64,000 nt of DNA from an uncultured Fibrobacteria bacterium (GCA_963716395.1 OY970309.1:1760001-1824000); one strand, 5' to 3'; counted from the first letter of the stretch, positions 42,996-62,215 are shown. The notes: generated from the letters alone by a model not told the origin. Translations and numbers: made by a program.

Positions 42996-43096
42996 AACGC
43001 CGGGATTCGAGGCCGCGGATTTCGTAATATGCAGGACGGCGGAATTTTCATCCACTCGCAAAGGGGCGGAGACGCAGGTTGGCCGCCGGGGAGCCC

Positions 43097-44867: not shown

Positions 44868-45197
44868 GCCTCCGGGAATTGGTCGCCATAACCTCTGGCG
44901 TCCGGAAGGCTTTGCCCGCGTTAAATTCCGCGGCGCGCCTGATTAAAGACCGACCGCCGCAGGGGCGTCCGGCCGGGATGCGGTCGCCGGCTTTCCAATC
45001 GCAACCTCATTTCCGAATGGGCTGGCAGTTTGAAAACCGCGTGAGACCCCGACCCAAGGTTCCAAAAACAAGTCGGGTTGTCGCGGCGAATGAAAAATAA
45101 GCGGAAATATATCCGGTTGAATCCGTGATACCCAACCCTCTCCTGGTATTACCCTTATATTCCAGGCAGGTTCATACTACCCAGTGGATATCCGTCT

Positions 45198-47405
45198 ATG
45201 CGCTCGCCCCCAACTTGCCCGCGGAGGGTTTTGCAAATTCGGTTCCGGGCCGCTGCGGTGCTGCTGGTTTGCGGAACCCTGACCGCGCAAACCACGCTGC
45301 CGTTAAATGTGAAGCTCTACGATCATAATTACGGGGATTTTGGGGGCGACTTCAGCGCGATATCCGTGACGACATGCAATTACAACGTGTACCAAGCCGC
45401 GCCCGGAATGGTGACCGACTCCCTTTATTTCGACTCCGTCCTGATGAAAAAAAATCTGCGGCAGGGTCCCAATCTGTGCGGATCCGCGAATATCGGCAAA
45501 TGGTTTGATCCCAATTACGCCCGCGTCTACACCTGCGGCAACCTTTTTTTCAACAATGTCGGAACCACCGCGGCGCCGCGCTGGAGGTTTGACGATACCG
45601 TGTTCCATCCCATGGACAGCCTGAGTTTGCAGCCCACCTGGGATTCCGGCGGAGTGTATTTACCGCATGATTTCGCCTTTTGCATGGAGATCAACACCGG
45701 GTTCGTTTACCAGGGTGGGGATTCGATGTGGTTCAAGGCCGATGATGATTTGTGGGCATATCTCGACAACCATCTGGTGGCGGATTTGGGTGGCGTGCAT
45801 TATTACCAGCAAGCCACGGTGAAGTTGGACACCTTGCCGTTCTTGCGGGGGCGCCAAGGTCAAAATCTGGATTTGGATGTTTACTACTGCGGCCGTCAGC
45901 CCGCCACCACGGTGTTCGGCATGGAGACCAATGTGAAACTGACGCCGCTCGCCGTCAAAGATTTGCAAATCGTCGATACCTTGGGGCAACCGGTGATCGC
46001 CAAAAGCATCATCGTCGGGAAAACCCGGGTGTGCGCGCGTCCCGATTTCCTGGTGCCCGGTGATGCGTCTTGCGGCAATTACGAGATGCCCGCGGGGCTC
46101 AGCTTTCTGGACGCCGACTGGGTGTTGAACGGCCAGACGCTTTCCATCAGCGGCGGCCAGCAATGCCTCGATCTCGATCCCTCGCAATTCGCCAACAACC
46201 AGAAAATCAACATCACCGCCACGGCCGAAGACAAGACCGCCGGCATCACCCTGACCTTGGTACGGGTGGCAAAACCGGTGGCGGGATGGCTGCACGGAAA
46301 CGGACGCGCCGAAACCGTGCAATTGAATTTGGATACAGCGGGCGGCCCGGCCCCCAATGGCCTGCAAACCGCCTTCACGTTCGCGGGCCGGGAACATACC
46401 CTCTGGGCCTACCCCGCCGGTAACTCCCCGGATACCCTGGTTTTGACCGGCACACTGGGCACCGATCCCGGCCCGTTGGGACTCACCGGCTTCACCCCCA
46501 TCCCGGCGGCCACGCAGCAAACCATTTACAGCCAAGTCATCGCCGAAAGCTGCTCTTTGAAAGACGGTGTCAGCCCGATTGCCACCTCAGCCCGATTCGA
46601 CTGGGATACTTCGGGATCCGGCTTTCCCGCCGTTCTGAATCTGGGGCTTTCCGAACCCTTGTCCACCCCCGCCAACCTGCTGGTGAACGCGGTGGCGGTG
46701 CAAGGGCCCGATGGGTCGGCCCTGAACCTTTCCGTCGCGGGGTGCCGGGGACTGTATCCGGATGCAGCGCAGATCCGGTTGCTGCTCCCGGAACTCGTAG
46801 CGGAAAATCTAAGGCCGGGAGACAGCTTGACCTTGACCGCGGCGGCGATGGATACGGCGGGTAATCCCGCGCAGCCGTATTTTATCGCGGTTGATTTTCC
46901 CAACGACCTGTCGCCTCAGATCGGGAATGTGCATTTCCAAAACGCCTTCACCATTGGAGCCGAGGTGAATCCCCTCGACGGAGATCCCGTCATGGTTTTG
47001 GTCGACGCCTCGGGAAACCCACTCTGGGACCGCGAACCCGACAGCCGGTTGGCAGCCATGCGCGGCCCGGTGCTGGAAATCTCCACCCAGGTACCGCTGA
47101 GCCGGATTCAACTCCAATTTTTCGACCATCTGGGAAATTTCATCAACGCCTGGGATCAGACTTTAACCGCGGCGGATTGGGAGCGCGTTTTGCGTGCCGG
47201 GGGTTCCGGAGACACCGAAGTGTATTTGATGTGGGTTCCCGTCTCAAGCACCGGGCATCGGGTCGGTACCGGCGTGTATATCGTGCAGGGGCAGGTGTGG
47301 AGCGATTATGGTTCCCCGGTTTCCGGCGCCGACGGGGTATTGATGAAAGCGCGCGCCACGCACATCAACGTGAATCCAATCCGTTTCGGATACGTCCGCC
47401 ACTGA
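45198..47405 (+). CDS. Fibro-slime (PA14-like) domain surface protein
   Basis: HDFAFCMEI, FKADDDLWAYLDNHLVADLGGVH, YYCGRQ; tail FFDHLGNFI...GHRVGTGVYI. Confidence 0.85.
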   Translation: MRSPPTCPRRVLQIRFRAAAVLLVCGTLTAQTTLPLNVKLYDHNYGDFGGDFSAISVTTCNYNVYQAAPGMVTDSLYFDSVLMKKNLRQGPNLCGSANIGKWFDPNYARVYTCGNLFFNNVGTTAAPRWRFDDTVFHPMDSLSLQPTWDSGGVYLPHDFAFCMEINTGFVYQGGDSMWFKADDDLWAYLDNHLVADLGGVHYYQQATVKLDTLPFLRGRQGQNLDLDVYYCGRQPATTVFGMETNVKLTPLAVKDLQIVDTLGQPVIAKSIIVGKTRVCARPDFLVPGDASCGNYEMPAGLSFLDADWVLNGQTLSISGGQQCLDLDPSQFANNQKINITATAEDKTAGITLTLVRVAKPVAGWLHGNGRAETVQLNLDTAGGPAPNGLQTAFTFAGREHTLWAYPAGNSPDTLVLTGTLGTDPGPLGLTGFTPIPAATQQTIYSQVIAESCSLKDGVSPIATSARFDWDTSGSGFPAVLNLGLSEPLSTPANLLVNAVAVQGPDGSALNLSVAGCRGLYPDAAQIRLLLPELVAENLRPGDSLTLTAAAMDTAGNPAQPYFIAVDFPNDLSPQIGNVHFQNAFTIGAEVNPLDGDPVMVLVDASGNPLWDREPDSRLAAMRGPVLEISTQVPLSRIQLQFFDHLGNFINAWDQTLTAADWERVLRAGGSGDTEVYLMWVPVSSTGHRVGTGVYIVQGQVWSDYGSPVSGADGVLMKARATHINVNPIRFGYVRH

Positions 47406-47412
47406 GGTACCC

Positions 47413-48171
47413 TTAGGGCGAAAGCCAAATGATGGCGGCCGGATTCCAACCGGTGGCGGTGAAGCTGGAATCGGTGTTCAGCGAATCCTGGGAAGTATAC
47501 ACGAGGCTGTCCCGCGACAGGGCGTTGAGGGCGTAAATCCCGGGCGGCAGGCTCGGTAACAGGAAGGATCCGTCCGCCTGCACGGCGGCCGCAAACGGCG
47601 AGCCGGAAATGAAAATCGAGTCCAAGCCCAAAGTCTCTCCTACAAGTCCCACCTGGCCGCGCAGGTTCGTGGCCGGCGGACTGAGCGCCAACGATCCCGA
47701 AAGCACGCCGTTGTTGAGAACCCAGGGATGGCCCTGGGTTTTTTGAAACCGGTAGTCGCTGCCCGAACGCGTCAGCAAAAAATCGCTGGCGAAGGCCTGA
47801 CCGCCCGGATTGAGGCCGATCAAATTGAATGCGATGGTGTCGGAGTTGGGCCAGGGAATGCCGCGCGCCTGGGCCTGCGTCATGGCCGACACCAGCGCTG
47901 CGGGCGTGATTTGCACCGTGTTCTGGGCCGAGGGCGTCGATTGTTCCAGGATCGCTTCCGTATCGAAGACCGGGTTTTGGAAGCGCGCGTAAACCCGCAC
48001 CGTACCCGCAGTGTTTCCATCGGGGTTGGTGAGGGAAACCGCCAGGGCCGGATACTCCACGTCATCGGTTCCCCCGCAGGCCGCGAAAAAGAAAATCGCC
48101 AACCCCGGCCAAATCAAGCCCGAAAACAGCCTCCGCCGGAGGAAGGACCTGCCTGCAAACAGAGGGCTCAT
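47413..48171 (-). CDS. Hypothetical lipoprotein coupled to the TIGR02147 gene
   Basis: Lipobox FFFAAC; IFISGSPF...DGSFLLPSLPPGIYAL (carboxypeptidase-regulatory-like strands); ATGA overlap. Confidence 0.7.
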   Translation of the reverse strand: MSPLFAGRSFLRRRLFSGLIWPGLAIFFFAACGGTDDVEYPALAVSLTNPDGNTAGTVRVYARFQNPVFDTEAILEQSTPSAQNTVQITPAALVSAMTQAQARGIPWPNSDTIAFNLIGLNPGGQAFASDFLLTRSGSDYRFQKTQGHPWVLNNGVLSGSLALSPPATNLRGQVGLVGETLGLDSIFISGSPFAAAVQADGSFLLPSLPPGIYALNALSRDSLVYTSQDSLNTDSSFTATGWNPAAIIWLSP

Positions 48172-49043
48172 GGTTTTTTCTTGGGCACCGCCTCCGGTCC
48201 CCATTCCGGAAGTATGGTGTTGGGAAAGAGTTGGATGTTCACGGTATAAACCCGATCTTCTTCCCGGTCCGACGCCACCAGGGCTTTGAGATCCTCACGA
48301 AAGGAGCGAACCCGCTCCCGCAATTCCTGGAACCCTTGGTGGGAGACATAGACGGTCATAGTGCTGTACTCCAAATCCGAAGTGGGAATGTGGGGCATCA
48401 CTTCTTTGGCGAGGTTGAGCATTTCCACGATGCGGGTTTTATTGCTGAAGTTTTTCTGATCGGGTTCCATGGTGATATGGGGATCCGTAACCGCATAACC
48501 GTTGGCGGTTTTGGTAATCAAGCCCAACTTCAAAAGCAGCCTTACCGCCTCCTCCACTTCTCGGACGGTGAGTTGGGGAAAGATTTCCTGGCCGATGCTT
48601 TCCGCATTTCTTTCCTTCGGGCGGATGCCGAAAAAAGCGCGGATCACCGAGTTTTGCCATTTCGCATAAAACTCGAAGCGATCTTTGGTGATGATGCGCG
48701 TTGGGGATTTTTTGTACTTGGCCAGAGCGGCGTAGAAGTGCTGCTTGCTCTCCTCGTTCTTCGACTGGTTGAATTGCACCAGTAATTCGAAATAACTTAA
48801 TTCGGAGGCCGTTAGTTTCATCGCTTTGGCCAATTTGAAGCGCAAATCTATGGTGAGATTCCGCTTGCCCGCGATAACTTTGGTGAAAAAGCTGGAATAC
48901 GACAATGGCAGTCCCGCATGTTTGGCAAACCCTCGCAGGGAAAAGCGGTAATCTTCCATTTTACGCGTGGAGAAATAATCCTCGAGAAACCGCCGGTAAT
49001 CCAGGTAATTGAAAACAGAGGGAGAGCTTTTGGGGTTCGCCAT
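48168..49043 (-). CDS. TIGR02147 family protein (Fibrobacterota paralogous HTH/DUF4423 family)
   Basis: VFNYLDYRRFLEDYF...FSLRGFAKHAG...VIAGKRNL...YFELLVQFNQSK...FYAKW...DRVYTVNIQLFP. Confidence 0.9.
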   Translation of the reverse strand: MANPKSSPSVFNYLDYRRFLEDYFSTRKMEDYRFSLRGFAKHAGLPLSYSSFFTKVIAGKRNLTIDLRFKLAKAMKLTASELSYFELLVQFNQSKNEESKQHFYAALAKYKKSPTRIITKDRFEFYAKWQNSVIRAFFGIRPKERNAESIGQEIFPQLTVREVEEAVRLLLKLGLITKTANGYAVTDPHITMEPDQKNFSNKTRIVEMLNLAKEVMPHIPTSDLEYSTMTVYVSHQGFQELRERVRSFREDLKALVASDREEDRVYTVNIQLFPNTILPEWGPEAVPKKKP

Positions 49044-49582
49044 CGAATTTTGCGCTCAAGTTCAAACTAAGAATACCGCCGGGGTGCCACGCAAATGGAT
49101 TGCTGCGGGGGCCGAAATGAGTACAAAACGTCTTCATTATTCGTCGAAATCGGTTCTGGGTGCGTGGAGGCTCACGATACATTCCCCAAAGCAAGGAGAG
49201 GAGTTGTGCACGTTTTGGTTTCCGGAGATGGCGTGATGGTGTCGACTCGGTTATCGTCCATCGCACCGCCGAAAGTGGATAGGGGCGGAATTCCGGACAA
49301 CTTCAAGGAGCGCTTCACAATTCCCCCTCCATTTTCCGTTTTTATCTTTAAATTCTGATGTGGAGAGCGGATTTTTATGGCGCAGCGGAAACGTTTCGGC
49401 AATTCCGAGCGGGGCAAACTGGGGTGTAAATATCAACTCCGGTGCCTTTGAATTTCCGCTTCCTGCGGGGCGGGAAATCAGCAAAAGCAATGGTGCGAAC
49501 GTTCCCAAAGGCGAGAGGATTTTGTCTGCGGGGTTTTAAGGGGATTAAAATGAAAACATGGCGGTCAATACAGGGGAGTGGG

Positions 49583-50920
49583 ATGAAGAAGCAACTTGGA
49601 ATCGGTTTCGGGGTCGCGGCGGCTTTGGCATTGATCGCCGCCCCCAATGCCCATGCGCAGCAGGATTACATGCCCCCGATGAGCGGTTGGCCGACTGGCG
49701 TTCAGACCCAATGGCAGGTGCAGGGCGAATATTACGGTTCGCAAACGCAAGATACCACCAAACATCTCGGCGCCTGGGTGGTAGCCAATGGAGGATCGAG
49801 CTACGGGCTTGTTATTCTGCCGGGAGGCCTGTTGACATTGCCGGGACAGCCATACGGTGGATGGGATACGAAAACTTTGTACCAAGGAACGGGAACGAGT
49901 GGTCCAGTAAATGGAACTCTTAACGGAAAAGTGTTCAACGTGAGCACCGCAACGGGCGGTTTTGTTTCAGATAGTATTACAGGAAATGGTGAAGCCAGAT
50001 CGCTTTATGTTCATAATGGCGGTACGGCATACGTCTTACAAAGGGTAAAACGCCATAGTCCCACCTTAGGGTTGAAGTATTCAGCGATTGCAAATATTCC
50101 AGGTGGAAGTGGAGTTGTTTCTCTCTTTGACTCTGCCACCGGCCAAGCGGATTTGTCGAAATGGGCTACGAACAATAACGACGGTGGTACGGGTACCTCC
50201 GGTCCTATACTCCGCAATAATTATCTCTACCGCGGGGTACATTCCGTGTCAGCCTTTGGTAGAGTTTTCATGCACATAGAATTTTTTTCCTGTTTTAACC
50301 CTACGGCAACGGGTCAAGGTCGGGCCAATAGCGGGGTTTATCAGCAAGGTCGATACGAAACCCAGGTATTGGATAATTTTGGTTTGCCGGCGATTAATGT
50401 GGATACTTATGGTGCGATTTACAGCATCAAAGATCCTCCGTTTGACCCTGAATTACCTCCTCAAGTTACCCTCCAAACCTATGACATATATTTTTCGCCC
50501 AGAACATCAGGCGGGGAAAATGATGTGGCCGGGTCTGCTTATTTCACCGTTTATGCGAACGGAGTATTGGTACAGGATTCAACCTTAGCTACGCATACAA
50601 CTACTTCACCTTATAATCAAATGGGCACCGACAATCAGCCGGTATTTTTACAAAATCATGGCAACGAAGTCGTCTTCAACAATATTTGGGTGGTCCCAAA
50701 CGCAACGGTTACTTCTTTGCCTTATAGTTCAATTTTGGCCGCCGCCTTGCCCCCTACTAGCGTAATGAATCCATTCAGTATTAAGCGCCCGAACAATAAA
50801 AGTGCGCTCAAATTGCTCGGAATCGGAGATGGGTTTGATTTGACGGGTCGGCACATTCATCGTGACGGAGCCGAGCTTTCCATCCTACCTGTTTTCATTC
50901 TTCCGAAGAAATCCAATTAA
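49583..50920 (+). CDS. Secreted DUF1080 (3-keto-disaccharide hydrolase-like) protein
   Basis: Signal peptide ending AHA; GQGRANSGVYQQGRYETQVLD, GAIYS, QTYDIYF, LQNHGNEVVFNNIW. Confidence 0.85.
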   Translation: MKKQLGIGFGVAAALALIAAPNAHAQQDYMPPMSGWPTGVQTQWQVQGEYYGSQTQDTTKHLGAWVVANGGSSYGLVILPGGLLTLPGQPYGGWDTKTLYQGTGTSGPVNGTLNGKVFNVSTATGGFVSDSITGNGEARSLYVHNGGTAYVLQRVKRHSPTLGLKYSAIANIPGGSGVVSLFDSATGQADLSKWATNNNDGGTGTSGPILRNNYLYRGVHSVSAFGRVFMHIEFFSCFNPTATGQGRANSGVYQQGRYETQVLDNFGLPAINVDTYGAIYSIKDPPFDPELPPQVTLQTYDIYFSPRTSGGENDVAGSAYFTVYANGVLVQDSTLATHTTTSPYNQMGTDNQPVFLQNHGNEVVFNNIWVVPNATVTSLPYSSILAAALPPTSVMNPFSIKRPNNKSALKLLGIGDGFDLTGRHIHRDGAELSILPVFILPKKSN

Positions 50921-50924
50921 AAAA

Positions 50925-50976
50925 TCGACTGTGAAGGCAACTGTGATGGGGAGAGTAATTATCCCTATCACAGTCG
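50925..50976. other. Intergenic hairpin with a duplicated left arm
   Basis: TCGACTGTGA (50925) and ACTGTGATGGGA (50940) can each pair with TCCCTATCACAGTCGA (50961-50976). Confidence 0.5.
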
Positions 50977-51025
50977 AATTTAACTAAAATTTGGTTTTGA
51001 GTTTTCCCCGTTTCTGAAAGGAGTC

Positions 51026-52378
51026 GTGATGCTAGACTACAAGAAGTATTCCATTCTTGGCGTGTTTGTGATGGGAGCGGCCATGGGAATCAGCGCCGAT
51101 GTATCAACTGTAAAGTTGGATCCTTTAAATGTGCAAGCAAACTGGGAGGCCGGACAAATCGAAAGCTTCGATAACCGGGGAAATCAAACTGCGGCTCAGA
51201 TCAAAGACAAGCAACTCATCAGCCATAGTTCCGTTTGGTTGTTACAACAGGCGCAACTGTCGGATAATGTGAAGGTTTCTTTGGGCGTGGGCGGAATTTA
51301 TTTCTTCATTCCAGCGTCCCCGAGTAACTATTACAGTTTTGGCCAACGTTCCGCTTTTGGCATATCCGATTTGCATCTTGAATGCAATTTCTGGAAAATG
51401 GAGGAAAACGACCATGGCTTATCCCTGAAAGTGGGCGTTTTCCCCTTCAAATACAACGAAGATGCCAAGAATCTGGGTGAATACATGTTTCGAACCTATT
51501 CCTATCCCACGGTTATTTATACCGGTGGTTTGGTGGTGTTAAATACTGCGGGTGTGCAATTGAATGGTGTGGATGCGAATACGAAAATCGCCGGACTCAA
51601 TAATGACCTAATGGTCACCATCAAAACCGATCAAGCTCCCAGCGGCGCTTTGAGCTTGACCGATATCTTTTCCTATTCCATCAAGAATGTTTTCACATTG
51701 GGCGGGGGTTACCAATTCGATAATTTTTATGATGCGACGGGCCTGGTAAACGGGAACTATAATTCGCGGGGAATTGCTAATTACTATGTACTTTCGGATG
51801 GAAGCGTTGTATACGGAACTCTTCCGGCCGCAGATTCTTCGCTGCTTGTCAGTTCCGGTCATTATACCTTCGCCGGTCAAAAAGCCATGGGGAGGGCTTC
51901 GCTGGATCTTGGGAATTTGATTTCCAGTTTCATACCGAACTCATTTCTGACCGATAAGCAATTTCGCCTTTACGGCGAAGTCATCGCGATGGGGATCAAG
52001 GATTATCCCGGATATTATCAGAAGCTCAGCGATCGCATCGCTTATATGTACGGATTGAATATTCCCACGGGAAATTTATTGGATGTGCTGTCCGTGGAAG
52101 CCGAATATTGCCGGAACCCCTATCCGGATAACTCCTTCGAACCCTTACAAGACCTTGCGCCCGTGCCCAATACCAGCGCGGGTATTGATGGCAAATCGGA
52201 TAATTTCAAGTGGACCATTTATGCCCAGAAAAAAATCATCAACGGATTTTCAATTACCGCACAGGCGGCCCGGGATCACATGCGCCTCGTGGATTTCTTC
52301 GGTCATTACTATGATCAAACCATCATGCAGCACCCCCAAAACTGGTATTGGGCCTTCCAGCTCGGGTATTCGATTTAA
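51026..52378 (+). CDS. Hypothetical outer-membrane beta-barrel protein
   Basis: Signal peptide; alternating aromatic strands; C-terminal WYWAFQLGYSI resembles a BAM-type terminal strand. Confidence 0.7.
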   Translation: MMLDYKKYSILGVFVMGAAMGISADVSTVKLDPLNVQANWEAGQIESFDNRGNQTAAQIKDKQLISHSSVWLLQQAQLSDNVKVSLGVGGIYFFIPASPSNYYSFGQRSAFGISDLHLECNFWKMEENDHGLSLKVGVFPFKYNEDAKNLGEYMFRTYSYPTVIYTGGLVVLNTAGVQLNGVDANTKIAGLNNDLMVTIKTDQAPSGALSLTDIFSYSIKNVFTLGGGYQFDNFYDATGLVNGNYNSRGIANYYVLSDGSVVYGTLPAADSSLLVSSGHYTFAGQKAMGRASLDLGNLISSFIPNSFLTDKQFRLYGEVIAMGIKDYPGYYQKLSDRIAYMYGLNIPTGNLLDVLSVEAEYCRNPYPDNSFEPLQDLAPVPNTSAGIDGKSDNFKWTIYAQKKIINGFSITAQAARDHMRLVDFFGHYYDQTIMQHPQNWYWAFQLGYSI

Positions 52379-52688: not shown

Positions 52689-55600
52689 ATGAAAATGTTG
52701 AGTGTGAAAAACCTTTCCCGATTAATCCTTTTGTCTACCCTGGCCTTTTTCGCCTGGACCTGCAACGTGTCGGATTCGGGCGGCGATACCATCTTGACCC
52801 TGACCGTGGGCGATTCCCTCAAAGCCGCGTCGGGGAAATACGACTCCATTCAAATCAAGGCGGCGGTGGTGAACGGCTCCGACACCACCTATCTGAAACT
52901 CGTTTTCCATGGCGCCTACAGCGATTCTTCGCAATTGCAAAACCTGAATCTCGGCCGGTTGCCCTCCAACGACTTCACCATCATTCTCGTCGGTTATAGC
53001 CAGGGCTCCACGGCTTTGGTGCTGGAATTGCCTTTCAGCAACGGCAAGGCCGGTACGCCCAAGCTCGACACCTTGATTGCGCCACCCGATACGACGCATC
53101 CCCAAAGTCAAAAGCTGCTGATGTGGCTGGCCCCGCCCGACAGCGGGACCTCCTTGTTTCATACCGTTGAGGGCAAGACGCTTTCTTTCCGCGTTATGGC
53201 CAAGGATTCCAACACCAAAGACAGCACGACTTTGCTGCAGATTCAGAATCTATTCCCCGCCGATTGCGGAGTCCCAAGCTATGACACAACCAGCGGAGCC
53301 TTCAGCTTCAAACCCGCCTTTGCCTGCGTGGATTCGGGAGGCGGTTCGGTAAGCGCCGCTCTCAAGTTCTTGGCCAAAGACCAAAGCCATCCCCCGGTTT
53401 ACGACACCTTGAGCGTATCGGTTCAAGTGCTCGACTTCAACAGCGCACCCAAGTGGAAAGTGGACACGGTCAGCCTTACCGGCAAACAGGGCAAAAACGT
53501 ATCGCTGGCTCTCGACAGCCTGTATCTCGGCGATGCCGAAGGCGACTCGGTGGCTTTCACCGCCTCGCTGGGGGTCATGACGCAAAACCCGCTTGCCTGG
53601 AGCTTCACCCCCTCGTTCTCGGATTCGGGCATGAAAACCGTATCGCTCACAGCCACCGATAACCATCACCCTCCGGCGTCATCTTCTTTGGCTCTTAAGC
53701 TCACCATCCAAGACTCGGTGCGCCCGTTTAATGTCATTATCACGTCGCCGCAAAACGGCTATGTGACGCGCGACAGTGTCATCGCCGTGCGTTGGAGTGT
53801 GAACGGCGCGGCGCAAACCACCAATACCACCGAGCATTTGCTGGAAGGTCAAAACGGGGTGGTACGCAGCTACCATGACAACCTGACGAACGCGACGTAT
53901 TCGGATTCCATCACGGTGACGCGCGACACGGTGCCGCCGAACAAACCGGTGGTAAGCGCCGTGTCGCCGACCAACAACCCTACGCCCACCTGGGCTTGGA
54001 AAACGGGCGGAGGCGGCGACGGTTATTTTCGCCATCGGCTCGACACGGCTTCCTTCGTGGATACGGTGGGAACGAAAGATTCCTCGTTCACGCCGTCCAC
54101 CAATCTGGTTGCCGGAACCCATGTTCTCTATGTGGAAGAGCGCGATGATGCCGGCAATTGGTCGGCTCTGTCCGCCGACTCGGTGCGTATCATCTTGACC
54201 GGCCCGGTGGTGGTCATCACTTCCCCAGCCAACAATTACGTGACCCGGCAAGCCAGTGTGTCGGTAGCTTGGACGGTGAATGGCATGGCGCAGACGCCAG
54301 TGATTAAGAGCCTGGTGGAAGGGCCGAATGTGCTCAAGGTGACGGGTCAGGATTCGGCCGGGAATCAAGGTTCGGATTCGATTACGGTAACACGGGATAC
54401 GGTCCCGCCCAATAAGCCGGTGGTGACCGGTCCGGGGCTGACCAATAGTTTGAAGCCGACATGGACCTGGCATAGCGGCGGCGGCAACGGCAGCGGGTAT
54501 TACCGGTTCAAGCTGGATGATACCACGGCATTCACCGACACCTTGGGATTAAACGACAGTTCCTATACGCCGACCGCGAATCTTTCCAACGGAACCCACA
54601 CCTTGTATGTGCAGGAACGCGACGCCGTGGGTAACTGGTCGGTGACAGGCAGCGGCGCCGCCAACGTGGATACCACGCATCCGGCCATCGCCATCACCTC
54701 GCCGCCCAACAATTACGTGACCCGGCAAACGAGCGTGACGGTAAGCTGGACTTTGAGCAATGTGGCGCAGACGCCGGTGATTAAGAACCTGGTGGAAGGG
54801 GCGAACACCCTGACCGTGTCGGGAGCGGATTCAGCGGGGAACAGTGTTTCCGCTTCAATTACGGTCACACGGGATACGGTACCACCCAACAAACCCGTAG
54901 TCACGGGTCCGGGGCTGACCAATAATCTGAAGCCGACGTGGACTTGGCATAGCGGCGGGGACAGCGGCAACGGGTATTACCGCTATAGGTTGGACACCGC
55001 GACCTTTACGGACACCACGGGCCTGGCGGACAGTTCCTATACTCCCGGCACCAACCTCAAACAAGGCCGACATGTGCTTTATCGTCGAAGAACGCGACGT
55101 CGCCGGCAATTGGTCGGCCATGGACAGCAGCGGTATCGCGCAGATCGACACCACAAAACCGGTGGTGAAAATCACTTCACCCACGGCGGGTATCCTGACC
55201 AATGCCAATTCCATCGCCGTGGTATGGACGGTAAATAGTGTGGTGCAAACCCAAAACGACTCGGAAAATCTTACGGGTAAATCGGGTTCGGTGAAAATCG
55301 TGCGTTCGTTTTCCGACAGTCTGGGAAATACCGGGGCAGATTCGGTGACTATTACGGTCGACCATTCGGTGCCGAATGCGCCCTCAATGACAGGACCGAC
55401 TACCCCGACCCGAAATACAACGCCAACTTGGTATTGGAGTACCGGAGGCGGCAGCGGCAATTACCAATATCAAATGGATGCCGCGGGGTGGATGCCAACG
55501 ATCTCGCTTAGCTTCACTCCGGCCAGCGCCCTGAGCTACGGAACGCATACACTATACGTGCAGGAGAAGAATGCTGCAGGTACGTGGTCGGCATCGGCTT

Positions 55601-56952
55601 CGGCGGCAGTATTGATTAAAGCCGCACCTTTGGCGCCGAATGTATCGGTTAACGCAACCTTGACCAATGCGCCCCAATGGACATGGGCCGCGGCAGCAAA
55701 CAGCGGGGGCGATGGCACTTTTGCTTATTCACTCGATAACGCAGCCTATTCCACTGCGCAAAATTTGGCGCGGTATGCCCCGACATTAAGCGACGGATCA
55801 CATACGCTCTGTGTTGAGGAACATGATGTATTGGGACTCGGCGCCGCGGGATGCAAAACTTTGCAAGTCGATCTTACCGCGCCCGCTCTTGCCATTACCG
55901 CGCCGACCGGAATGGCCGCCGTTTTTTCGGGAACGCCGGCCACTACGGGAACCGCTTCGGATGCCAACGGGATCAAGACGTCGACTTATAGCTTAAATGG
56001 GGGGTCGGCTCAAACTTTGACCGTCAGCAACGGGACGTGGTCGTTTGCTCCGACATGGATTGAAGGCCAAAATATTCTATCCGTAACAATTACCGATAAC
56101 GCCGGGAACATAAATATTCAGAAGGATACTGTGTATAAACGATCTCATGTAGTATTTGTTCGCAAAGGTGCGATTGGGACCGGAGATGGGACTTCGTGGG
56201 CTAACGCTTATCCAGAAATGAGCACAGCTTTTAACGCCTGGGGAAAAAATCCTCGGGGAACCCAAGTTTGGGTAGCAGCAGGTACTTATATACCGTTAAA
56301 TGGCGGTGGTTTGAATATCGATTCCTCTATCGCAGTATACGGGGGGTTTCCATCGGATGGTAGTGCTAACGCAATAACCATGAGGAACGTTTCGTCATAT
56401 CAGACCGATGTTCAAGATCCTGTCAACGGCGGAAACCTTTTATACTTGGGCGGCAACAATATTACGATAAACGGGTTCATTTTTGAACAAGCCAATAGCG
56501 TTGCAGTTATTAGCGGTTCACAAATTAATATAGTTAACTGCACAATACGTAAATTTACCAAAACCAATAGTATCCCATTAATGATTACTTCAGATGGTTC
56601 TACTTTGGTAGATAGCTGTAACTTCACAAGTAATCAAACCACCGAAATTGGTGCTTTAGTTGGATCGGGGTTTACACTAAGTAACTCTCAGTTCCAAAAT
56701 AACACATCCAATAATATTGGCGGATATAGTGGCGGGGCAATGCAAATTTACGGAGGAACGGTGAAAATGTTTGGCACCGTATTTTCACAAAATTATGGTA
56801 CTGACCCCTCGAATAGCCTGAATAATATTCAGGTATATGTTTATAGCGGAACGTTAAATTATCAGACCGGCACCGTGTATTTTAATGAGGTAAACAATAC
56901 TAATTCCGGTATCTCAACTGCTGGGGGTACGGGAGTGGCCGATTCCTATTAA
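52689..56952 (+). CDS. Large Ig-like repeat surface lipoprotein with C-terminal beta-helix-like domain; one extra base at 55083 splits it (about 1420 aa if joined)
   Basis: Lipobox FAWTC; repeats DSITVTRDTVPPNKPVV...GTH.LYV.ERD..GNWS; HVLY-c-VEERD frameshift; C-terminus GDGTSWANAY...VWVAAGTY...YGGF and Asn-rich coils. Confidence 0.82.
53900..55350 (+). repeat. Three tandem intragenic repeats of about 475 bp (two Ig-like domains each)
   Basis: VTRDTVPPNKPVV codons begin at 53916, 54387 and 54864. Confidence 0.8.
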
Positions 56953-56985: not shown

Positions 56986-59640
56986 ATGCCTAATCCCGCC
57001 CCCACCCCCGTTGACACCTTACCCTATCCGGCGCCTTGCTGCCGGGATTGCCAATGGAAACCCTGCCGTTACCTGGGTGGCAGCCCGCGCATACGGGGCT
57101 TTCACTACCTCGGCCCCTGGCCCAGGCTGCCGAAGGATTGCCCGGCCTGGCTGAAAAACCAGACACATCTGGATCTCGAAAAGGTTTTGCAAAGACTGAA
57201 CCGCAACGAGTTGGAAGAGCTTTACCGCACCGGACCTCCCCGCGTCACGGGATATCCGCTCCGCCCCGAAGATTCTCCCCTTCACCTTCTCGCCCACGAA
57301 ATTCCCCATCACCGGGAATCGTGGCTGGTGGTCGCGCCCGGCTCGCATCTCGACCATGCCGTGCATGCCCTGTACTGGGCCTATACGCGCGCCTTGGCCC
57401 GCGCCAACCCTAAAAGGAAAAAGGTCGAGGATGTAGATGCAGCGGCGGCGCAAAGCAAGGAGGCAGAACCGGCGCTTTTGAACCCCGGTTTTGTAAGCAT
57501 CGAGGATGAGAAAAAACCCGGCAGTCCCGAAACCACCATCACCGAGGCTGACATCGGAGAGGTGGTGCATCTCAAAGTGGATACCCAAGGCTTGCAACCC
57601 GCCGATAACATATTGTTCCAGATATTCCTCAAGGGTGAGAACGGGCAGGCGGATGTTTTCATTGAAAACGTATTCGGCAACGCCGGTAAAACCAAATACG
57701 GAAGCGATTGGACCACGCGCGAAGATGACGCCGCCGCGGTGCATTACCATATCGGCGACGGTCATGCGGAAAGAAAATACCGGCCGGGAAAAGACACCCT
57801 CTACTTCATCGCCAAGGTAAAGTCAAAAGGGCTGGAGCAGAGAAGCGGTGCGCTGCAACTGACGAAGACCGAAGAAGCGATTCTGTATTATTGGCCCGGC
57901 GATGCGGATAATGAAGGTGAATATCTCCTGTTGGAAAAAAGCGATGACATCGACGACGTGATGACCGAAGCCGGAACCATGAATTCAACTCGTGAAAAAC
58001 TGATGGAAGCGCGTGCGGCTGCCGGCGTCGATGCCAAGGAAAAAGCCGACAAGGTTTCGGATGCGGCCGAAAAGATGGACTCTTTGTTGAACGAAGCCGC
58101 GCCCGATCCCGAAAAAGCCTTGCTGGAACTTTATCTGGTCAAAAAGGGTGCGCGAAAAGAAAAAAGTCTGAAAAGTCTGATTTATATCCGTTCCCATCTC
58201 CGTAACGGCAAGCAAGCCCGAGGCCATTGGGCCAAAGAGCGCGACGCCACGGTGCGCAAGCAATTGGAGAAAGCCAAAAAAGATGAGGACAAGCGTGTTT
58301 CTCAGGAATTTAAGGTCAAGCTTTGGGATTGGCATAAGGAAGAATCGGGATCCTGGTTACCGCACTGGAAATTTGCGCAGAAAACCTTTTCATCGGAAAA
58401 ACCGGCCCAGCCTGGCGAGCGGTTTTCCGGTGCGGCGGAAGCGCAATTCGCACGGTTTTATGCGGGCGCAAAAAGTTCCGCGGATTTTGATCTGAAAGAC
58501 GCCAAGGTCGATTTCGGCGGTTCCGCCGAAGTTTCGGTGTCTTTGGTGCAAGGCAAGGCCAAAGGCACCTGGCAATTACCCAATGATCACGGCATCAATC
58601 TTTTTCCCAAATTCACCGGAACCGATAAAGCTGAAGCCGCAGCCGTGGGCAAGGAATTGCGACTGCGACTGGCGGTATCTTTGCAGGCCTATGGGTTCGT
58701 GGGAGTCTCGGCTTCAGCGGCCTTGCATTTTCCCAACTTGGATTTGGGTGGCAAAAAAGCCCCGCCTTTGCGTAAGCCTGCTTCCGATCCAAGCGGGAAA
58801 TTCGACGCCAATGTTTCCGGCGACGGCCAAGCCTTTGCGGGGGCCTCAGCCGGCGGCGGCGTAGAACTGGATTTGCAATGGGGCAAAACCGCCCAGTTTT
58901 TCGACAGCCTCGGCGATATGGAATTTACCGCGGATGCCTGTTTTGGAGCGGGCGGTGCAATCGGATTTATGATCGGATTCAAAGACGGCAAATTTCATAT
59001 TGAAATGAAGGCTGGTTTGGTGACGGGGCTTGGTGCCAAGGGATTCGTGAACGTGGCCGTGAGTGCCGAAGAAATGCTGAAGATATTGGGCTATTGTTTT
59101 AAAAACGTAAATCACCATTATCTCGACAATGTGCAACCCGATGCCTTTGATAATTATGTGGCCTATGGGTTCTGGCTGGCGGTGAAATACGTTCCGGAAT
59201 TGCGGGAGTCATTCGAAGTGTTTACCGGAGCCTCGGCCTTCACCAATTGGCTGGAAACCACGGGAAGCAAAATTTTTGGGGATCACGATACGAAAAAGGA
59301 TTTATTGGAATCTCTGCTCCAAAACGACAAGGCGCTGCATCAATGTGCACCGCAAACACTGGGTCAGATTTTGCGGACCATTATGGTGAGCCATGAAGAT
59401 GGGGACGAAGACAAAATCATCCACGTGCTTTCTATTCCAGAATCGGATCATGAATTCAAATGGACGATTCGCTGGGCTTCGGGGTTGGAGGAGTTGGACC
59501 ATGCGGTGCGCATTAACAAACACGTGAGCGATGATTTGAAGAAGCGGACATTAGAAGCGGGAGCAAATCGGATTAAAGGATTTAGCGATAAAGAAAACTA
59601 TCAAAAACAAATCAGTAGGCTGTTTGATGGTTCGAGATAA
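56986..59640 (+). CDS. Putative polymorphic toxin / effector, 884 aa
   Basis: No signal peptide; Cys-rich N-terminus, Gly/Ala-rich beta-strand region, helical C-terminus that is duplicated as a variant downstream; followed by YwqK/MORN genes. Confidence 0.65.
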   Translation: MPNPAPTPVDTLPYPAPCCRDCQWKPCRYLGGSPRIRGFHYLGPWPRLPKDCPAWLKNQTHLDLEKVLQRLNRNELEELYRTGPPRVTGYPLRPEDSPLHLLAHEIPHHRESWLVVAPGSHLDHAVHALYWAYTRALARANPKRKKVEDVDAAAAQSKEAEPALLNPGFVSIEDEKKPGSPETTITEADIGEVVHLKVDTQGLQPADNILFQIFLKGENGQADVFIENVFGNAGKTKYGSDWTTREDDAAAVHYHIGDGHAERKYRPGKDTLYFIAKVKSKGLEQRSGALQLTKTEEAILYYWPGDADNEGEYLLLEKSDDIDDVMTEAGTMNSTREKLMEARAAAGVDAKEKADKVSDAAEKMDSLLNEAAPDPEKALLELYLVKKGARKEKSLKSLIYIRSHLRNGKQARGHWAKERDATVRKQLEKAKKDEDKRVSQEFKVKLWDWHKEESGSWLPHWKFAQKTFSSEKPAQPGERFSGAAEAQFARFYAGAKSSADFDLKDAKVDFGGSAEVSVSLVQGKAKGTWQLPNDHGINLFPKFTGTDKAEAAAVGKELRLRLAVSLQAYGFVGVSASAALHFPNLDLGGKKAPPLRKPASDPSGKFDANVSGDGQAFAGASAGGGVELDLQWGKTAQFFDSLGDMEFTADACFGAGGAIGFMIGFKDGKFHIEMKAGLVTGLGAKGFVNVAVSAEEMLKILGYCFKNVNHHYLDNVQPDAFDNYVAYGFWLAVKYVPELRESFEVFTGASAFTNWLETTGSKIFGDHDTKKDLLESLLQNDKALHQCAPQTLGQILRTIMVSHEDGDEDKIIHVLSIPESDHEFKWTIRWASGLEELDHAVRINKHVSDDLKKRTLEAGANRIKGFSDKENYQKQISRLFDGSR

Positions 59641-59644
59641 TAAA

Positions 59645-60464
59645 ATGACTACAACATATTTAATCTTCTTTACAGCAATTTTTGGTTCAAGCGGTATTCC
59701 GGAAAAGTGCATTGAAAAAAAAATAGGAATTAATATCAGGCAAGAGTGTCTCACATTTTATTCAAATGGAAACAAAAAAGACAGTAGTACTACAATTATT
59801 ATTCCAGGCAAAAAACAAGGCTTTCATGATAGTGAATATGTTGCAGACGGGGAACAAAAAACATGGTATCGATCAGGCCGATTAAAATGGGTTGCCAAGT
59901 ATAAAATGGATTGTTTGGTGGATACAAATCTTCGAATATTATGAAAATGGAAATCCATGGTATATCGAACCCTATAAGGACTGCAAAAGAAACGGCCTTT
60001 CCCAACGCTTCGATTCAACCGGCGGATTGCTTTTTGAGGGCGAATTCAAAAACGGTGATCAAATTGGGTTGCAAAAGGAATTCTGGCGCAAAGGCGTATT
60101 GAAAGATGAATCGTTTTACAACGATTCCCAAACTCGGGTGGATTGGGAAAAATCGTGGTATATCAGCGGAAAATTAAGGCGAGATATGAAAATTAGTGGC
60201 GAGATAAAAGAAATCAAAAATTACGCCCCGAACGGAAAACTGGTTCAGCACACCCACGCCAAAGCGGCAGATGGGAATCTGATTACTGGCGAAAGTTTCG
60301 ATCCCGACGGAAAACCCACGGGCAAGGTGACGCAGGGCAACGGCTCGCTGACCACCATCGGTTTCAACGATTCGACCCTGGTCATGTATTCGAAGTACAG
60401 CTATAACTACAAAGACGGGTGGCCGGGCAAGATGAAACAAATATTCCCGCCGCCGCCGAAATGA
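59645..60464 (+). CDS. YwqK/MORN-variant repeat protein, putative immunity allele 1; one extra base near 59928
   Basis: Hydrophobic N-terminus; FYSNG, DGEQKTWYRSG, YYENG, GEFKNG, YAPNGK repeats; joins ORFs 59624-59944 and 59892-60464 by alignment to allele 2. Confidence 0.78.
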
Positions 60465-61186
60465 ATTCGCCGGATGCCTGTTTTGGAGCGGGCGGTGCAA
60501 TCGGATTTATGATCGGATTCAAAGACGGCAAATTTCATATTGAAATGAAGGCTGGTTTGGTGACGGGGCTTGGTGCCAAGGGATTCGTGAACGTGGCCGC
60601 GAGTGCCGAAGAAATGCTGAAGATATTGGGCTATTGTTTTAAAAACGTAAATCACCATTATCTCGACAATGTGCAACCCGATGCCTTTGATAATTATGTG
60701 GCCTATGGATTCTGGCTGGCGGTGAAATATGTTCCGGAATTGCGGGAGTCGTTCGAAGTGTTTACCGGAGCCTCGGCCTTCACCAATTGGCTGGAAACCA
60801 CGGGAAGCAAAATTTTTGGTAAAAGCATAAATAAAGATCAGCTGCTTGAATCCCTGCTTCAAAACGATGAGGCACTGCATCAATGTGCTCCGCAAACCCT
60901 GGGTCAGATTTTGCGGACCATTATGGTGAGCCATGAAGATGGGGACGAAGACAAAATCATCCACGTGCTTTCTATTCCAGAATCGGATCATGAATTCAAA
61001 TGGACGATTCGCTGGGCTTCGGGGTTGGAGGAGTTGGACCATGCGGTGCGCATTAACAAACACATGAGCGATGATTTAAAGAAGAGAGCGTTGGAGGAAG
61101 GGATTACAGCACTAAAATCGTTCGGCGACTTCCCAAAAAATCCAGAGAATCTATTAGCAATATTCAGCAAATTCGGCTTGCAATGA
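60461..61186 (+). CDS. Orphan effector C-terminal fragment, variant allele (241 aa)
   Basis: Near-identical to the effector C-terminus from DACFGAGG onward but with a different internal patch and tail; in-frame ATG overlaps the previous stop (ATGA). Confidence 0.75.
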   Translation: MNSPDACFGAGGAIGFMIGFKDGKFHIEMKAGLVTGLGAKGFVNVAASAEEMLKILGYCFKNVNHHYLDNVQPDAFDNYVAYGFWLAVKYVPELRESFEVFTGASAFTNWLETTGSKIFGKSINKDQLLESLLQNDEALHQCAPQTLGQILRTIMVSHEDGDEDKIIHVLSIPESDHEFKWTIRWASGLEELDHAVRINKHMSDDLKKRALEEGITALKSFGDFPKNPENLLAIFSKFGLQ

Positions 61187-62022
61187 AGTTAACAGTTATT
61201 TTGACAACACTTTCCACTTTAATTGCCCAGGAATCGGAGTTGAAAAAATGTGAGATCAAAAAGGATGGTTCAAAAATCGTTCAAACTTGCGTTTCCTTCT
61301 ATAAAAACGGTGCGCAAAAAGATAGCTCAAATGAGTTAGTACTTCCGGGCCATAAATGGGGTGTTCATGATAGCGAATACTTGCTCGACGGAGAAGCAAA
61401 ACATTGGTATCCGAGTGGAAATTTGAAAAGTCGGTCAATGTTCAGAGCCGATAGAACATTTGAATTTGGTTGTTCTATCGACACGTCGTTCGCTTTTTAT
61501 CCAAATGGGAAAGAAGAAGAAATTATTCCTTATAAAGGCTGTAAGCGAAACGGCCTTTCCCAACGCTTCGATTCAACCGGCGGATTGCTTTTTGAGGGCG
61601 AATTCAAAAACGGGAAAAAAGTCGGCTTGCAAAAAGAATTCTGGCGTAAAGGTGTACCCAAACATGAAATGTTTTATGATAGCTCAACTTTTAAGGCTAA
61701 CGAGGAAAAGTCCTGGTACATCAACGGCAAATTGAGCGAAGAAATAAGCATCGAAAACGGCATCGAAGAAACAAGAGATTACGCCCCAAACGGAAAACTG
61801 GTTCAGCACACCCACGCCAAAGCGGCAGATGGGAATCTGATTACTGGCGAAAGTTTCGATCCCGACGGAAAACCCACGGGCAAGGTGACGCAGGGCAACG
61901 GCTCGCTGACCACCATTGGTTTCAACGATTCGACCCTGGTCATGTATTCGAAGTACAGCTATAACTACAAAGACGGGTGGCCGGGGAAGATGAAACAACT
62001 ATTCCCGCCGCCGCCGAAATGA
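61183..62022 (+). CDS. YwqK/MORN-variant repeat protein, putative immunity allele 2
   Basis: Signal-like MKLTVILTTLSTLIA; WYPSG, FYPNG, WYING, YAPNG repeats; C-terminal ~80 aa nearly identical to allele 1. Confidence 0.82.
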   Translation: MKLTVILTTLSTLIAQESELKKCEIKKDGSKIVQTCVSFYKNGAQKDSSNELVLPGHKWGVHDSEYLLDGEAKHWYPSGNLKSRSMFRADRTFEFGCSIDTSFAFYPNGKEEEIIPYKGCKRNGLSQRFDSTGGLLFEGEFKNGKKVGLQKEFWRKGVPKHEMFYDSSTFKANEEKSWYINGKLSEEISIENGIEETRDYAPNGKLVQHTHAKAADGNLITGESFDPDGKPTGKVTQGNGSLTTIGFNDSTLVMYSKYSYNYKDGWPGKMKQLFPPPPK

Positions 62023-62215
62023 ATTCGCCGGATGCCGCCTGCAGATCGATCCGTTTTGCCGATCAAAGACAACAACGGCCATACCGCCCTGGTCGAAGCC
62101 GAACGCTGCGGGAAAAAAGCGAACGCCGATTTTTTACTCCGAGCGATGGGAAAATAAACCCCGACCCGGCCTTGCGGCCGGCGCCGGGATTGGGACCGAA
62201 CCGAAAACGCGACGG

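Follow-up and report, generated by a model that had tools for sequence, protein, structure and literature searches.

A predicted T6SS effector-immunity cassette locus with MORN_2 partner genes in a soil Fibrobacterota genome

Introduction

In polymorphic toxins, the toxic part usually lies at the extreme C-terminus, beside the immunity gene. Rhs, CDI (CdiA-CT/CdiI) and MafB loci share an order in which a full gene and its immunity gene are followed by 5'-truncated toxin ends, each with an immunity gene of its own. VasX-type T6SS cargo effectors (VasX, Tke5, TpeX and Bte2) are large (~900-1100 aa) and non-enzymatic and act on membranes from the periplasm. Accounts of the BTH_I2691/VasX-type family describe fusions to LysM, PAAR, VgrG and MIX/VasX_N (PMC13133200; 10.64898/2026.08.24.746647) and present Tki5 and TsiV2 as inner-membrane immunity proteins (PMC13133200). 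Two further sources give YwqK as the cognate immunity protein of Bacillus subtilis YwqJ (10.64898/2026.09.29.755374) and note vgrG-adjacent YwqK-family genes in T6SS clusters (PMC8356804).

Here, a stretch of 64,000 nucleotides from an uncultured Fibrobacteria bacterium (GCA_963716395.1, OY970309.1:1760001-1824000; hereafter the window) was analyzed, in which a sequence-only reading had proposed a toxin-immunity locus with orphan cassettes. In all likelihood, the locus encodes a bacterial weapon that depends on cell contact. It is with high probability a T6SS effector-immunity cassette locus, its toxicity and secretion being predictions.

Anatomy of the array in the window

The array comprises the following features.

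56986..59640, + strand: effector gene, 884 aa (ORF call and paralog comparison)
56986..57495, + strand: N-terminal module, residues 1-170, with a conserved C-x2-C-x4-C ... C-P Cys motif (GC 61%)
57496..57852, + strand: beta-rich N-terminal domain, residues ~171-289 (predicted at low confidence, secondary structure only)
57853..58422, + strand: opening segment of the core conserved across the family, residues 290-479, composed of short strands, a long hairpin of helices and a linker modeled at low confidence
58423..59064, + strand: six predicted very long beta strands, residues 480-693, 15% Gly (AlphaFold model)
59065..59547, + strand: all-helical C-terminal domain, residues 694-854, conserved and also present in the orphan cassette
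59548..59640, + strand: variable 30-aa tail, residues 855-884, and stop codon (cassette-specific, following the family-wide tail pattern)
59624..60464, + strand: MORN_2 immunity-like gene 1, split over two reading frames, 59624-59944 plus 59892-60464 (Pfam)
60471..61186, + strand: orphan 3' effector cassette, 238 codons, carrying the final two long strands and the helical domain, followed by a different tail
61183..62022, + strand: MORN_2 immunity-like gene 2, 279 aa, intact, its start overlapping the orphan stop codon (Pfam)
62023..62036, + strand: 14-nt cassette-junction remnant with the same letters as 60465-60478, ending the array after MORN gene 2

All four elements of the sequence-only reading, an 884-aa ORF, a MORN gene, an orphan toxin end and a second MORN gene, are present at these positions, and the two tails it quoted are correct. 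The orphan, which it put at ~240 codons with a different tail, has 238 codons and a different 30-aa tail; it lacks the N-terminal parts and corresponds to effector residues 648-884 with 87% amino acid identity over the 238 codons; identity reaches 99% across most of the cassette, and the last 30 residues differ. Its listed ORF start, 60419, falls within MORN gene 1. The repeat in the window is far beyond chance: nucleotides 58931-59230 and 60471-60770 are 99% identical, while 60146-60445 matches 61704-62003 with 90% identity across the 300 nt and almost perfectly in the final ~230 nt. Between these conserved flanks lies a strongly diverged block, consisting of the last 30 toxin codons plus the 5' two thirds of the MORN gene, with a GC content of 36% vs 55-61% in the surroundings.

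Four loci and their cassettes

The source is a soil Fibrobacterota genome assembled as one contig (99.2% complete, 0.3% contamination), which holds four effector-type loci, the window locus and three more, at 0.39, 1.13, 1.82 and 3.24 Mb. A MORN-like gene lies directly 3' of the effector at 4/4 loci. The proposed toxin-immunity locus with orphan cassettes is supported. Orphan 3' cassettes, each with an immunity gene, number one in the window, two to three at locus 2, about four at locus A and about nine at locus B, and the junction letters and cassette logic are common to all four separate loci.

All cassettes carry the same toxin domain (97-99% identity), and only its last 30-40 residues differ. 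Specifically, a 74-aa toxin segment occurs in 11 copies that are 99% identical to one another, while tails of at least 30 aa (n = 9) show 42% mutual identity (range 22-91%). The accompanying immunity genes have a near-identical 3' end and a variable N-terminal part, and type II orphans retain just the last ~115 toxin residues. Toxin domains are not what the cassettes swap; they exchange only the 30-40-aa tail along with the immunity gene's N-terminal part. The Rhs/CDI/MafB-type architecture that had been proposed thus holds in part: the order of the array is the same, with an immunity gene directly downstream, orphan cassettes and conserved stretches that could guide recombination. However, because the orphan is the same domain with a different tail, the swapped, unrelated C-terminal toxin domains of Rhs/CDI/MafB loci are absent, and the cassettes share one toxin domain throughout. 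Moreover, no Rhs, haemagglutinin/TPS, MafB/MafB_N, LXG or PAAR trafficking domain was found by Pfam in the 884-aa protein at E <= 5.

Among the four paralogs, only the window effector ORF, uninterrupted over 884 codons, is free of internal frameshifts, stops and tail truncation; its nucleotides 1-2297 align gap-free to locus 2. The other three contain frameshifts, a stop or short tails, and many MORN genes of the other arrays are likewise frameshifted or stopped. Because the cognate immunity gene in the window and the three other effector copies are damaged as assembled, the system may be decaying, or else its repeats may be poorly polished.

As for the neighborhood of the array, an adhesin-like gene lies directly upstream of the window effector, and the upstream Ig-like gene is also frameshifted or stopped as assembled.

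MORN_2 immunity-like proteins

Both MORN/YwqK genes score above the MORN_2 Pfam cut-off of 29.6 bits (gene 1, 45.9; gene 2, 59.6), as had been read, while NCBIfam models gave no name to gene 2. What that reading had missed is that gene 1, as assembled, is split by an additional base, absent from copy 2, in a run of A near 59924-59928; translation probably begins at the ATG at 59645. The N-terminus of gene 1 is signal-peptide-like as read from the sequence, and gene 2 combines such an N-terminus with two conserved Cys. These observations were extended by the aligned MORN proteins, in which a hydrophobic start occurs in 12/12 and the two Cys are nearly invariant. The MORN proteins therefore look periplasmic by predicted export, and the signal-peptide-like N-termini and conserved Cys pair suggest that the toxin, too, acts in the periplasm.

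YwqK-type proteins belong to the same repeat family, MORN_2, that the window genes match. The antitoxin parallel drawn with YwqK survives at the level of this match, but not in compartment, since YwqK is cytoplasmic whereas the window proteins carry signal-peptide-like N-termini and the Cys pair. YwqJ, a type VIIb-secreted LXG deaminase acting in the cytoplasm, is unrelated to the window toxin. Among relatives, where adjacency of homologs to YwqK-type genes had been put forward as a check, eight of 12 full-length homolog loci have a MORN-like gene immediately 3' of the homolog; in three, nothing MORN-like follows (the downstream gene is an AraC-type regulator in one, encodes a 176-aa protein with no Pfam match in another, and is not recognized in the third), and the remaining one stops at a contig edge.

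Effector family and T6SS link

The 884-aa effector gave no Pfam match even at E <= 5, no NCBIfam match and no PDB sequence match. By an exhaustive profile search, with a profile built only from the paralogs of the source genome, it is a member of a large, widespread, unnamed family (512, 343 and 76 representatives at E <= 1e-3, 1e-10 and 1e-30, respectively). Most representatives align to profile positions ~285-830 with varied N-termini ahead, so the conserved part is the C-terminal ~550 aa. Twelve family columns are nearly invariant (six Gly, two Pro, E, R, W and L), among which there is no His/Cys/Ser/Asp/Lys catalytic-type set; in the helical domain, near-invariance is limited to P, L and G.

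Eighteen family matches, picked for length and including one that shares only the N-terminal module (P0074), were scanned singly. Three carry Hcp (P0034), VgrG (P0115) or VgrG and PAAR (P0092), ten carry OmpA, PG_binding_1, SLT, Amidase_2, M23 or SH3_3, and five have no added domain. Among 43 further matches, LysM was found on eight and OmpA on four, with VgrG families, DUF4280, VasX_N and Hcp on one member each, in agreement with NCBIfam.

The source genome encodes TssC (436 bits) and Hcp at 3.318 Mb, one VgrG at 2.677 Mb, and PAAR genes at 0.055 and 1.181 Mb, while no vgrG, hcp, paar or adaptor gene occurs within the window or in the vicinity of the three other loci. A look for T6SS genes in homolog-bearing genomes had been suggested: an effector match was found in 24 of 61 related genomes, with TssC present in 24/24 (23/23 without the unpublished genome G025, which these counts include). 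None of the 24 TssC-negative relatives has a match, and 13 relatives are TssC-positive without one. VgrG adjacency was seen in one of five relatives checked (G015), where the homolog lies ~400 bp from the sole VgrG match in divergent orientation. The VgrG, PAAR-like, Hcp and VasX_N fusions, together with TssC in all matching genomes, argue for a T6SS effector family. The delivery and toxic domains, which had been suspected to be undescribed, match nothing in Pfam, NCBIfam or PDB, nor does the core model in Foldseek at E <= 0.001, but the delivery route can be named as the T6SS.

Further clues come from the N-terminus of the effector. Its residues 1-170 share 86% amino acid and 88% nucleotide identity with the paralogs, the rest of which are ~35% identical, and the substitutions fall at codon positions 14/14/41, a third-position bias; this part is a candidate loading or trafficking module. 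In related genomes that have a T6SS, the domain at ~171-289 is also present on many other proteins, whose C-termini differ. Across the whole protein, 19-aa hydropathy windows revealed no hydrophobic N-terminus, in line with the earlier call of no signal peptide, and the peak (mean KD 1.46, residue 562) falls inside a predicted strand.

Predicted structure and proposed mechanism

An AlphaFold model of residues 290-884, built with 66 sequences (pLDDT 77.1), places six strands of 23-28 residues ahead of the helices. The alternating hydrophobic/polar (dyad) pattern of these strands is conserved across the 66 family members; in strands 3-6 one face has a mean hydropathy of +1.7 to +2.4 and the other of -0.6 to -1.4, aromatic residues lie near the strand ends, and Gly is abundant. 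Such long antiparallel strands with alternating residues recall OpcA, OmpT and porins, as well as the stems of aerolysin, haemolysin or MACPF proteins. The beta part weakly matches porin I, OpcA, OmpT, FapF and PapC, all outer-membrane barrels, at Z 4.2-5.5 and rmsd 4-18 A; its top values (Z 5.5-5.8 for FyuA, C5b8, porin I and OpcA, with large rmsd) are below the level that the tool regards as meaningful (Z < 8). For the helical part, matches are confined to generic helical repeats (Z <= 6.2). Foldseek, the check recommended for a known fold, returned no match to the core model at E <= 0.001. Since each chain contributes just six long strands, several chains would have to combine to close a barrel.

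The amphipathic strands, the lack of a known fold and the lack of conserved catalytic-type residues together suggest a non-enzymatic, membrane-inserting toxin. In our proposal, the N-terminal ~290 residues would load the effector onto the T6SS spike for delivery into the neighbor's periplasm, where the six long amphipathic, Gly-rich strands would insert into a membrane, probably after oligomerization, and breach it without enzymatic activity. The helical C-terminal domain and tail would be the part recognized by the immunity protein, and the MORN_2 proteins, once exported into the periplasm by the producer and its kin, would bind and neutralize incoming toxin. Each cassette, made of a conserved toxin 3' end, a variable 30-40-aa tail, a variable immunity 5' part and a conserved immunity 3' part, could serve as a substrate for homologous recombination, yielding a new tail with matching immunity specificity, and the cassettes may also provide a stock of extra immunity genes. 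We lean, if not strongly, toward this proposal as a whole, from T6SS cargo and periplasmic delivery to cassette recombination. The model-based step of membrane insertion by the strands is, taken by itself, plausible yet somewhat doubtful; amphipathic strands of such length can equally be packed onto helices within a soluble protein.

Alternatively, the locus would still be a T6SS effector-immunity system, but its toxic activity would reside in the helical domain (residues 694-884), which would act enzymatically or by binding a target in the periplasm or cell wall, with the long-stranded region being only a scaffold or translocation aid. The extreme C-terminus is usually the toxic part of polymorphic toxins, the orphan cassettes keep exactly that part, many relatives bear cell-wall-binding or lytic domains, and a precedent exists in BteO, which is described as a non-enzymatic T6SS effector targeting OmpA (PMC12541434). 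Nevertheless, the domain lacks an invariant catalytic-type set and resembles only generic helical repeats, and the ~115 residues kept by type II orphans are too few for the whole of it, so we consider this alternative rather unlikely. An origin outside toxin biology, namely a T6SS-associated or cell-envelope protein, such as an anchoring or adhesion factor, with MORN partners and ordinary tandem duplication, would fit the OmpA, LysM and PG_binding fusions, which also occur in envelope-anchoring proteins, the Pal-, YfiB- and TssL-type NCBIfam models matching those N-terminal domains, and the adhesin-like gene directly upstream. It is very improbable, given that 99%-identical flanks around a hypervariable tail and immunity block at four loci would be odd for a structural protein, that VgrG, PAAR and Hcp fusions are the usual form of specialized effectors, and that MORN_2/YwqK proteins are known as immunity proteins (10.64898/2026.09.29.755374).

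The window array itself could be an assembly or strain-mix artefact, its duplication or frameshifts unreal in the cell, or a dead, non-functional remnant. Repeats are where long-read assemblies are worst polished, and damage affects three of the four effector copies, window MORN gene 1, many MORN genes of other arrays and the upstream Ig-like gene; moreover, public contig scraps on the region are 151-337 nt long, come from one soil study and include none across a junction. Against this stand four separate loci in a one-contig genome with the same cassette logic and junction letters, copies whose differences form an ordered mosaic, which collapsed or mixed strains would not resemble, and the window effector, intact and gap-free as described above, leaving an artefact or remnant quite unlikely.

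Comparison with VasX-type effectors

The proposed membrane-inserting T6SS effector can be likened to the VasX type in size and presumed mode of action. Judged from the descriptions of VasX and Tke5, the two nonetheless differ: the window protein has no VasX_N/MIX match and no NCBIfam match (NCBIfam presumably contains a BTH_I2691 model). In place of a membrane-spanning hydrophobic helix, its predicted membrane part is beta, vs the colicin-like helices of the VasX type, and its immunity protein would be a soluble, exported MORN repeat protein rather than an inner-membrane one like Tki5 or TsiV2. LysM, PAAR, VgrG and VasX_N fusions occur in the present family too, VasX_N on one member, and in both types of locus the immunity gene lies directly downstream.

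Organization of the proposed effector-immunity locus

The ORF listing and Pfam searches confirm that the order read from the sequence alone (effector, MORN gene, orphan C-terminus, MORN gene) is real and had been correctly spotted. The genome carrying it (G000) is assembled as one contig of 3.75 Mb at 99.2% completeness, with the window at G000:C1:1760001-1824000, and the features of the locus and its surroundings are listed below. The relatives of its MurA at 75-81% identity come, except for a few bins with odd labels, from MAGs labelled Fibrobacterota or Fibrobacteria.

Features of the window locus and its upstream neighbours (window coordinates)
48168-49043, - strand: gene for a DUF4423 protein
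49442-50920, + strand: gene for a secreted protein with a 3-keto-disaccharide-hydrolase domain
52689-56952, + strand: gene for an Ig-like surface protein with Big_13 repeats and a beta-helix-like end
56986-59640, + strand: effector ORF, 884 aa (ORF listing)
59624-59944 and 59892-60464: MORN_2 gene 1, in two frames as assembled (Pfam 45.9 bits, cut-off 29.6)
60419-61186: orphan ORF, homologous to the effector gene from 60471 on
61183-62022: MORN_2 gene 2, intact, 279 aa (Pfam 59.6 bits)

The surface-protein gene ends 34 nt before the effector start and is itself assembled as two overlapping frames, split near 55070-55240. Its first 2.6 kb are 99.4% identical to G000:C1:3231569-3234142, in front of a further effector locus (locus 2), so the duplication takes in the surface-protein gene. 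A scan of six neighbouring ORFs (43079-52378) turned up no T6SS structural gene. Two antisense ORFs of 248 and 218 aa, at 57019-57765 and 60407-61063 on the - strand, lie within the effector gene and the orphan copy and are probably chance open frames.

Alignment of the two repeat units (58931-60478 and 60471-62036) reveals a mosaic in which the initial 350 nt are 99% identical, followed by a differing 30-nt patch and then by ~235 nt at 94-99% identity. The units are hardly alignable over the final 30 codons of the toxin and ~450 nt at the start of the MORN gene, and become ~99% identical again over ~230 nt at its end. Fourteen letters of the junction are repeated behind MORN gene 2, and GC content is 36% in the variable block and 61% at the start of the effector gene.

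Polymorphism limited to the toxin tail

Besides the window locus, G000 holds three further full-length effector copies, two of them belonging to a second type of the protein that is 46% identical over residues 1-733.

Further effector loci in G000 (genome coordinates)
C1:3236202-3245483: locus 2, 98.6% identical to the window locus over 2.6 kb
C1:3242933-3244580 (positions 4934-6581 of L072): two inserted genes between MORN cassettes of locus 2
382704-389557: locus A, second type, about four cassettes
1117572-1128997: locus B, second type, about nine cassettes

In locus 2 the tail contains a stop, and the array comprises two to three orphan ends and four MORN genes as well as the two inserted genes. 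The products of the inserted genes, one of 295 aa with hydrophobic stretches and one of 256 aa, have no Pfam match. At the second-type loci the cassettes recur with a period of ~1.1 kb, and a frameshift ahead of the helical domain interrupts each effector copy. A 74-aa toxin segment is present there in 11 copies that are 99% identical pairwise, and the nine tails of at least 30 aa are 42% identical (range 22-91%). Compared with one reference, the MORN genes of the arrays are 36-100% identical.

The polymorphic unit is accordingly the short tail together with the N-terminal part of the next gene, set between two near-identical stretches, and not the toxin domain. Of the polymorphic toxin system proposed by the sequence-only reading, the effector-immunity cassette system stands. 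Arrays of orphan ends in Rhs, CDI and MafB systems resemble the one described here, but the toxin-domain exchange that defines them is absent. Both the predicted architecture and a polymorphism limited to the tail are unusual, and the toxin body stays 99% identical while the short tail varies along with the part of the immunity protein that faces it, making the family a compact system for studying how immunity specificity is encoded. It should be noted that the tail and the immunity part are contiguous, so linkage alone would yield their co-variation.

The split genes are either broken or mis-assembled. MORN gene 1 carries a single extra base in an A-run near 59924-59928 when compared with copy 2, and many MORN genes in the second-type arrays and locus 2 are likewise split as assembled. 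Public reads (three runs from one soil study) gave contig pieces of 151-337 nt, 0 of them across a junction or the frameshift, and with pieces of this length decay and polishing error are both possible sources of the split genes.

A widespread family linked to type VI secretion

Searches with the 884-aa protein gave nothing in Pfam, even at E<=5, or in NCBIfam, and PDB yielded no relative, with no match below E 0.098 by sequence or by profile. A word-indexed protein search recovered the paralogs of G000 alone, but its candidate filter was saturated and the outcome has no bearing on how rare the family is; a scan for related loci with the single protein likewise gave no relative. An exhaustive HMMER search with a profile built from G000's own copies returned 512 representatives with E<=1e-3, 343 of them with E<=1e-10, corresponding to at least 512 clusters at 50% identity that lack a name, a Pfam model or a solved relative. 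The part common to the family is the C-terminal ~550 residues, conserved through the tail pattern, and the N-termini vary. Of 10 relatives whose clusters were looked up, P0115 alone had a name, 'Rhs element Vgr protein'. The best ESM Atlas scores (0.83-0.84, unnamed Bacteroidota clusters) fell below the tool's trusted level, and a plasmid collection yielded two distant Pseudoalteromonas matches at 26-27% identity in unannotated stretches, where the neighbours were uninformative. A distant relative of 980 aa in the gammaproteobacterium Pseudoalteromonas piscicida (NZ_CP074588.1; L073 6816-9758) is 26% identical over 80% of the core; it is followed, on the opposite strand, by two genes with FGE-sulfatase domains, and there is no MORN gene.

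Eighteen hits, chosen by length, were scanned singly for domains, one of which shares the N-terminal module only. Hcp, VgrG or VgrG plus PAAR was fused in three of them, ten carried peptidoglycan-binding or lytic domains (OmpA, PG_binding_1, SLT, Amidase_2, M23, SH3_3) and five had no domain match. In 43 more hits, LysM was found in eight and OmpA in four, with NCBIfam names in agreement, and VgrG families, DUF4280, VasX_N and Hcp in one member each. Sequence alone could not link the family to the T6SS more firmly than these fusions do.

G000 encodes TssC, Hcp, one VgrG and PAAR genes, none of them near any of the four effector loci. Profile matches occurred in 24 of 61 related genomes, 18 in the core and six in the N-terminal beta domain only. 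The T6SS genes that had been proposed as a check in genomes with homologs were indeed present, TssC being found in 24/24 matching genomes, and a profile match in 0/24 genomes without TssC; a further 13 genomes were TssC-positive without a profile match. The 61 genomes are kin, so these counts are not independent, and they include the unpublished G025 (one N-domain-only match, one TssC match), without which the count is 23/23. In one relative (G015; L013, G015:C97:1-5192), an effector homolog with a MORN gene downstream lies ~400 bp from that genome's only VgrG match, in divergent orientation, and in four other relatives the homolog and VgrG are on separate contigs.

From the domain fusions and the co-occurrence we conclude that the 884-aa protein represents a putative T6SS effector family. 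The locus would be a T6SS effector-immunity cassette system whose toxins form a widespread but uncharacterised family, with a mechanism that we infer. T6SS effectors are a main source of new antibacterial mechanisms. In the literature covered, one paper names both Fibrobacterota and type VI secretion, in passing; the present findings suggest that uncultured Fibrobacterota carry elaborate interbacterial weaponry. Within the genus, the 11 other genomes (G001-G011) are of 1.9-2.7 Mb vs 3.75 Mb for G000, with the effector family in 0/11 and TssC in 1/11, and the weapon set was apparently gained in the G000 lineage or lost in the other 11.

Predicted structure and proposed mode of action

In an AlphaFold model of residues 290-884 (66 sequences, pLDDT 77.1, pTM 0.63), a long hairpin of helices and a disordered linker precede six strands of 23-28 residues each, which span residues 480-693, and residues 694-884 fold as an all-helical domain; the full-length model, from 7 sequences, was unusable (pLDDT 36.7). 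The long strands contain 15% Gly, and hydrophobic and polar residues alternate along them, a pattern kept throughout the alignment of 66 sequences. Twelve columns are nearly invariant (six Gly, two Pro, E, R, W and L) and do not form a catalytic set, as judged from the alignment. Foldseek with the core model gave no match at E<=0.001, and together with the Pfam, NCBIfam and PDB searches this bears out the suspicion that the toxic and delivery parts may be undescribed. The best match of a wide VIA search (Z 7.0) covered the helical hairpin only, and VIA-align of the beta part gave weak matches only to membrane barrels and a complement pore (Z 4.2-5.8, large rmsd), a range that is uninformative per the tool.

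The MORN proteins have a hydrophobic stretch at the start and two nearly invariant Cys which, together with the cell-wall domains of the relatives, point to periplasmic action. Complex prediction for the orphan toxin end and MORN protein 2 scored 0.00 and, run without controls, is not evidence either way. The best reading of the model is a non-enzymatic toxin that would insert its long hairpins into a membrane and be neutralised by the MORN protein in the periplasm.

A bolder combination, which we regard as rather unlikely when taken jointly, is that this is the first T6SS effector family to kill via a beta-barrel-type pore, with an N-terminal loading marker and a tail-MORN immunity code. An oligomeric barrel would form in a target membrane from long amphipathic hairpins, three of them supplied by each chain, the N-terminal module of Cys motif and beta domain would serve as a T6SS loading marker in Fibrobacterota, and the immunity code would reside in the 30-40-aa toxin tail, be read by the exported MORN repeat protein and be rewritten through cassette recombination. 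If the long-strand region does form a pore, it would constitute a new structural class among T6SS membrane toxins.

In function, the BTH_I2691/VasX effectors come closest: they are of similar size, have the same N-terminal fusion repertoire and are followed by an immunity gene. Unlike the window protein, they carry MIX motifs and colicin-like membrane segments that are helical, and their immunity proteins sit in the inner membrane (PMC13133200; 10.64898/2026.08.24.746647). The characterised T6SS pore formers in the literature covered are helical or unclassified. MORN/YwqK proteins are established immunity proteins (10.64898/2026.09.29.755374) and YwqK-family genes are noted beside vgrG (PMC8356804). 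The literature covered, mostly abstracts and passages of main texts, contained nothing on exported MORN proteins paired with a membrane-type toxin, nor on this effector family or a beta-type T6SS pore former; supplementary effector tables could name relatives.

The N-terminal module

Residues 1-290, in which a conserved Cys motif is combined with a domain rich in beta structure, are read as a putative loading module. The known markers MIX/VasX_N, PAAR, DUF4150 and DUF4280 had no match in it. Over residues 1-190, identity to the second-type paralogs is 86% for the protein and 88% for the DNA, against ~35% otherwise, and the differences in this stretch fall on the codon positions as 14/14/41, a bias implying that the frame is real and strongly constrained or that the stretch was homogenised later than the remainder.

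The module also occurs with other C-termini, these being short ends in P0064 and P0073, and OmpA or PG_binding domains with a differing C-terminal part in P0074, P0129 and P0132. Taken alone, the beta domain has matches in many proteins of related T6SS-positive genomes and could be the mark of a larger set of effectors in Fibrobacterota. It was also seen on short proteins with other ends at two loci, L028 (G017:C28), where a lipoprotein-like gene and a gene for a class-3 lipase come next, and L029 (G031:C85), where a lipoprotein-like gene comes next.
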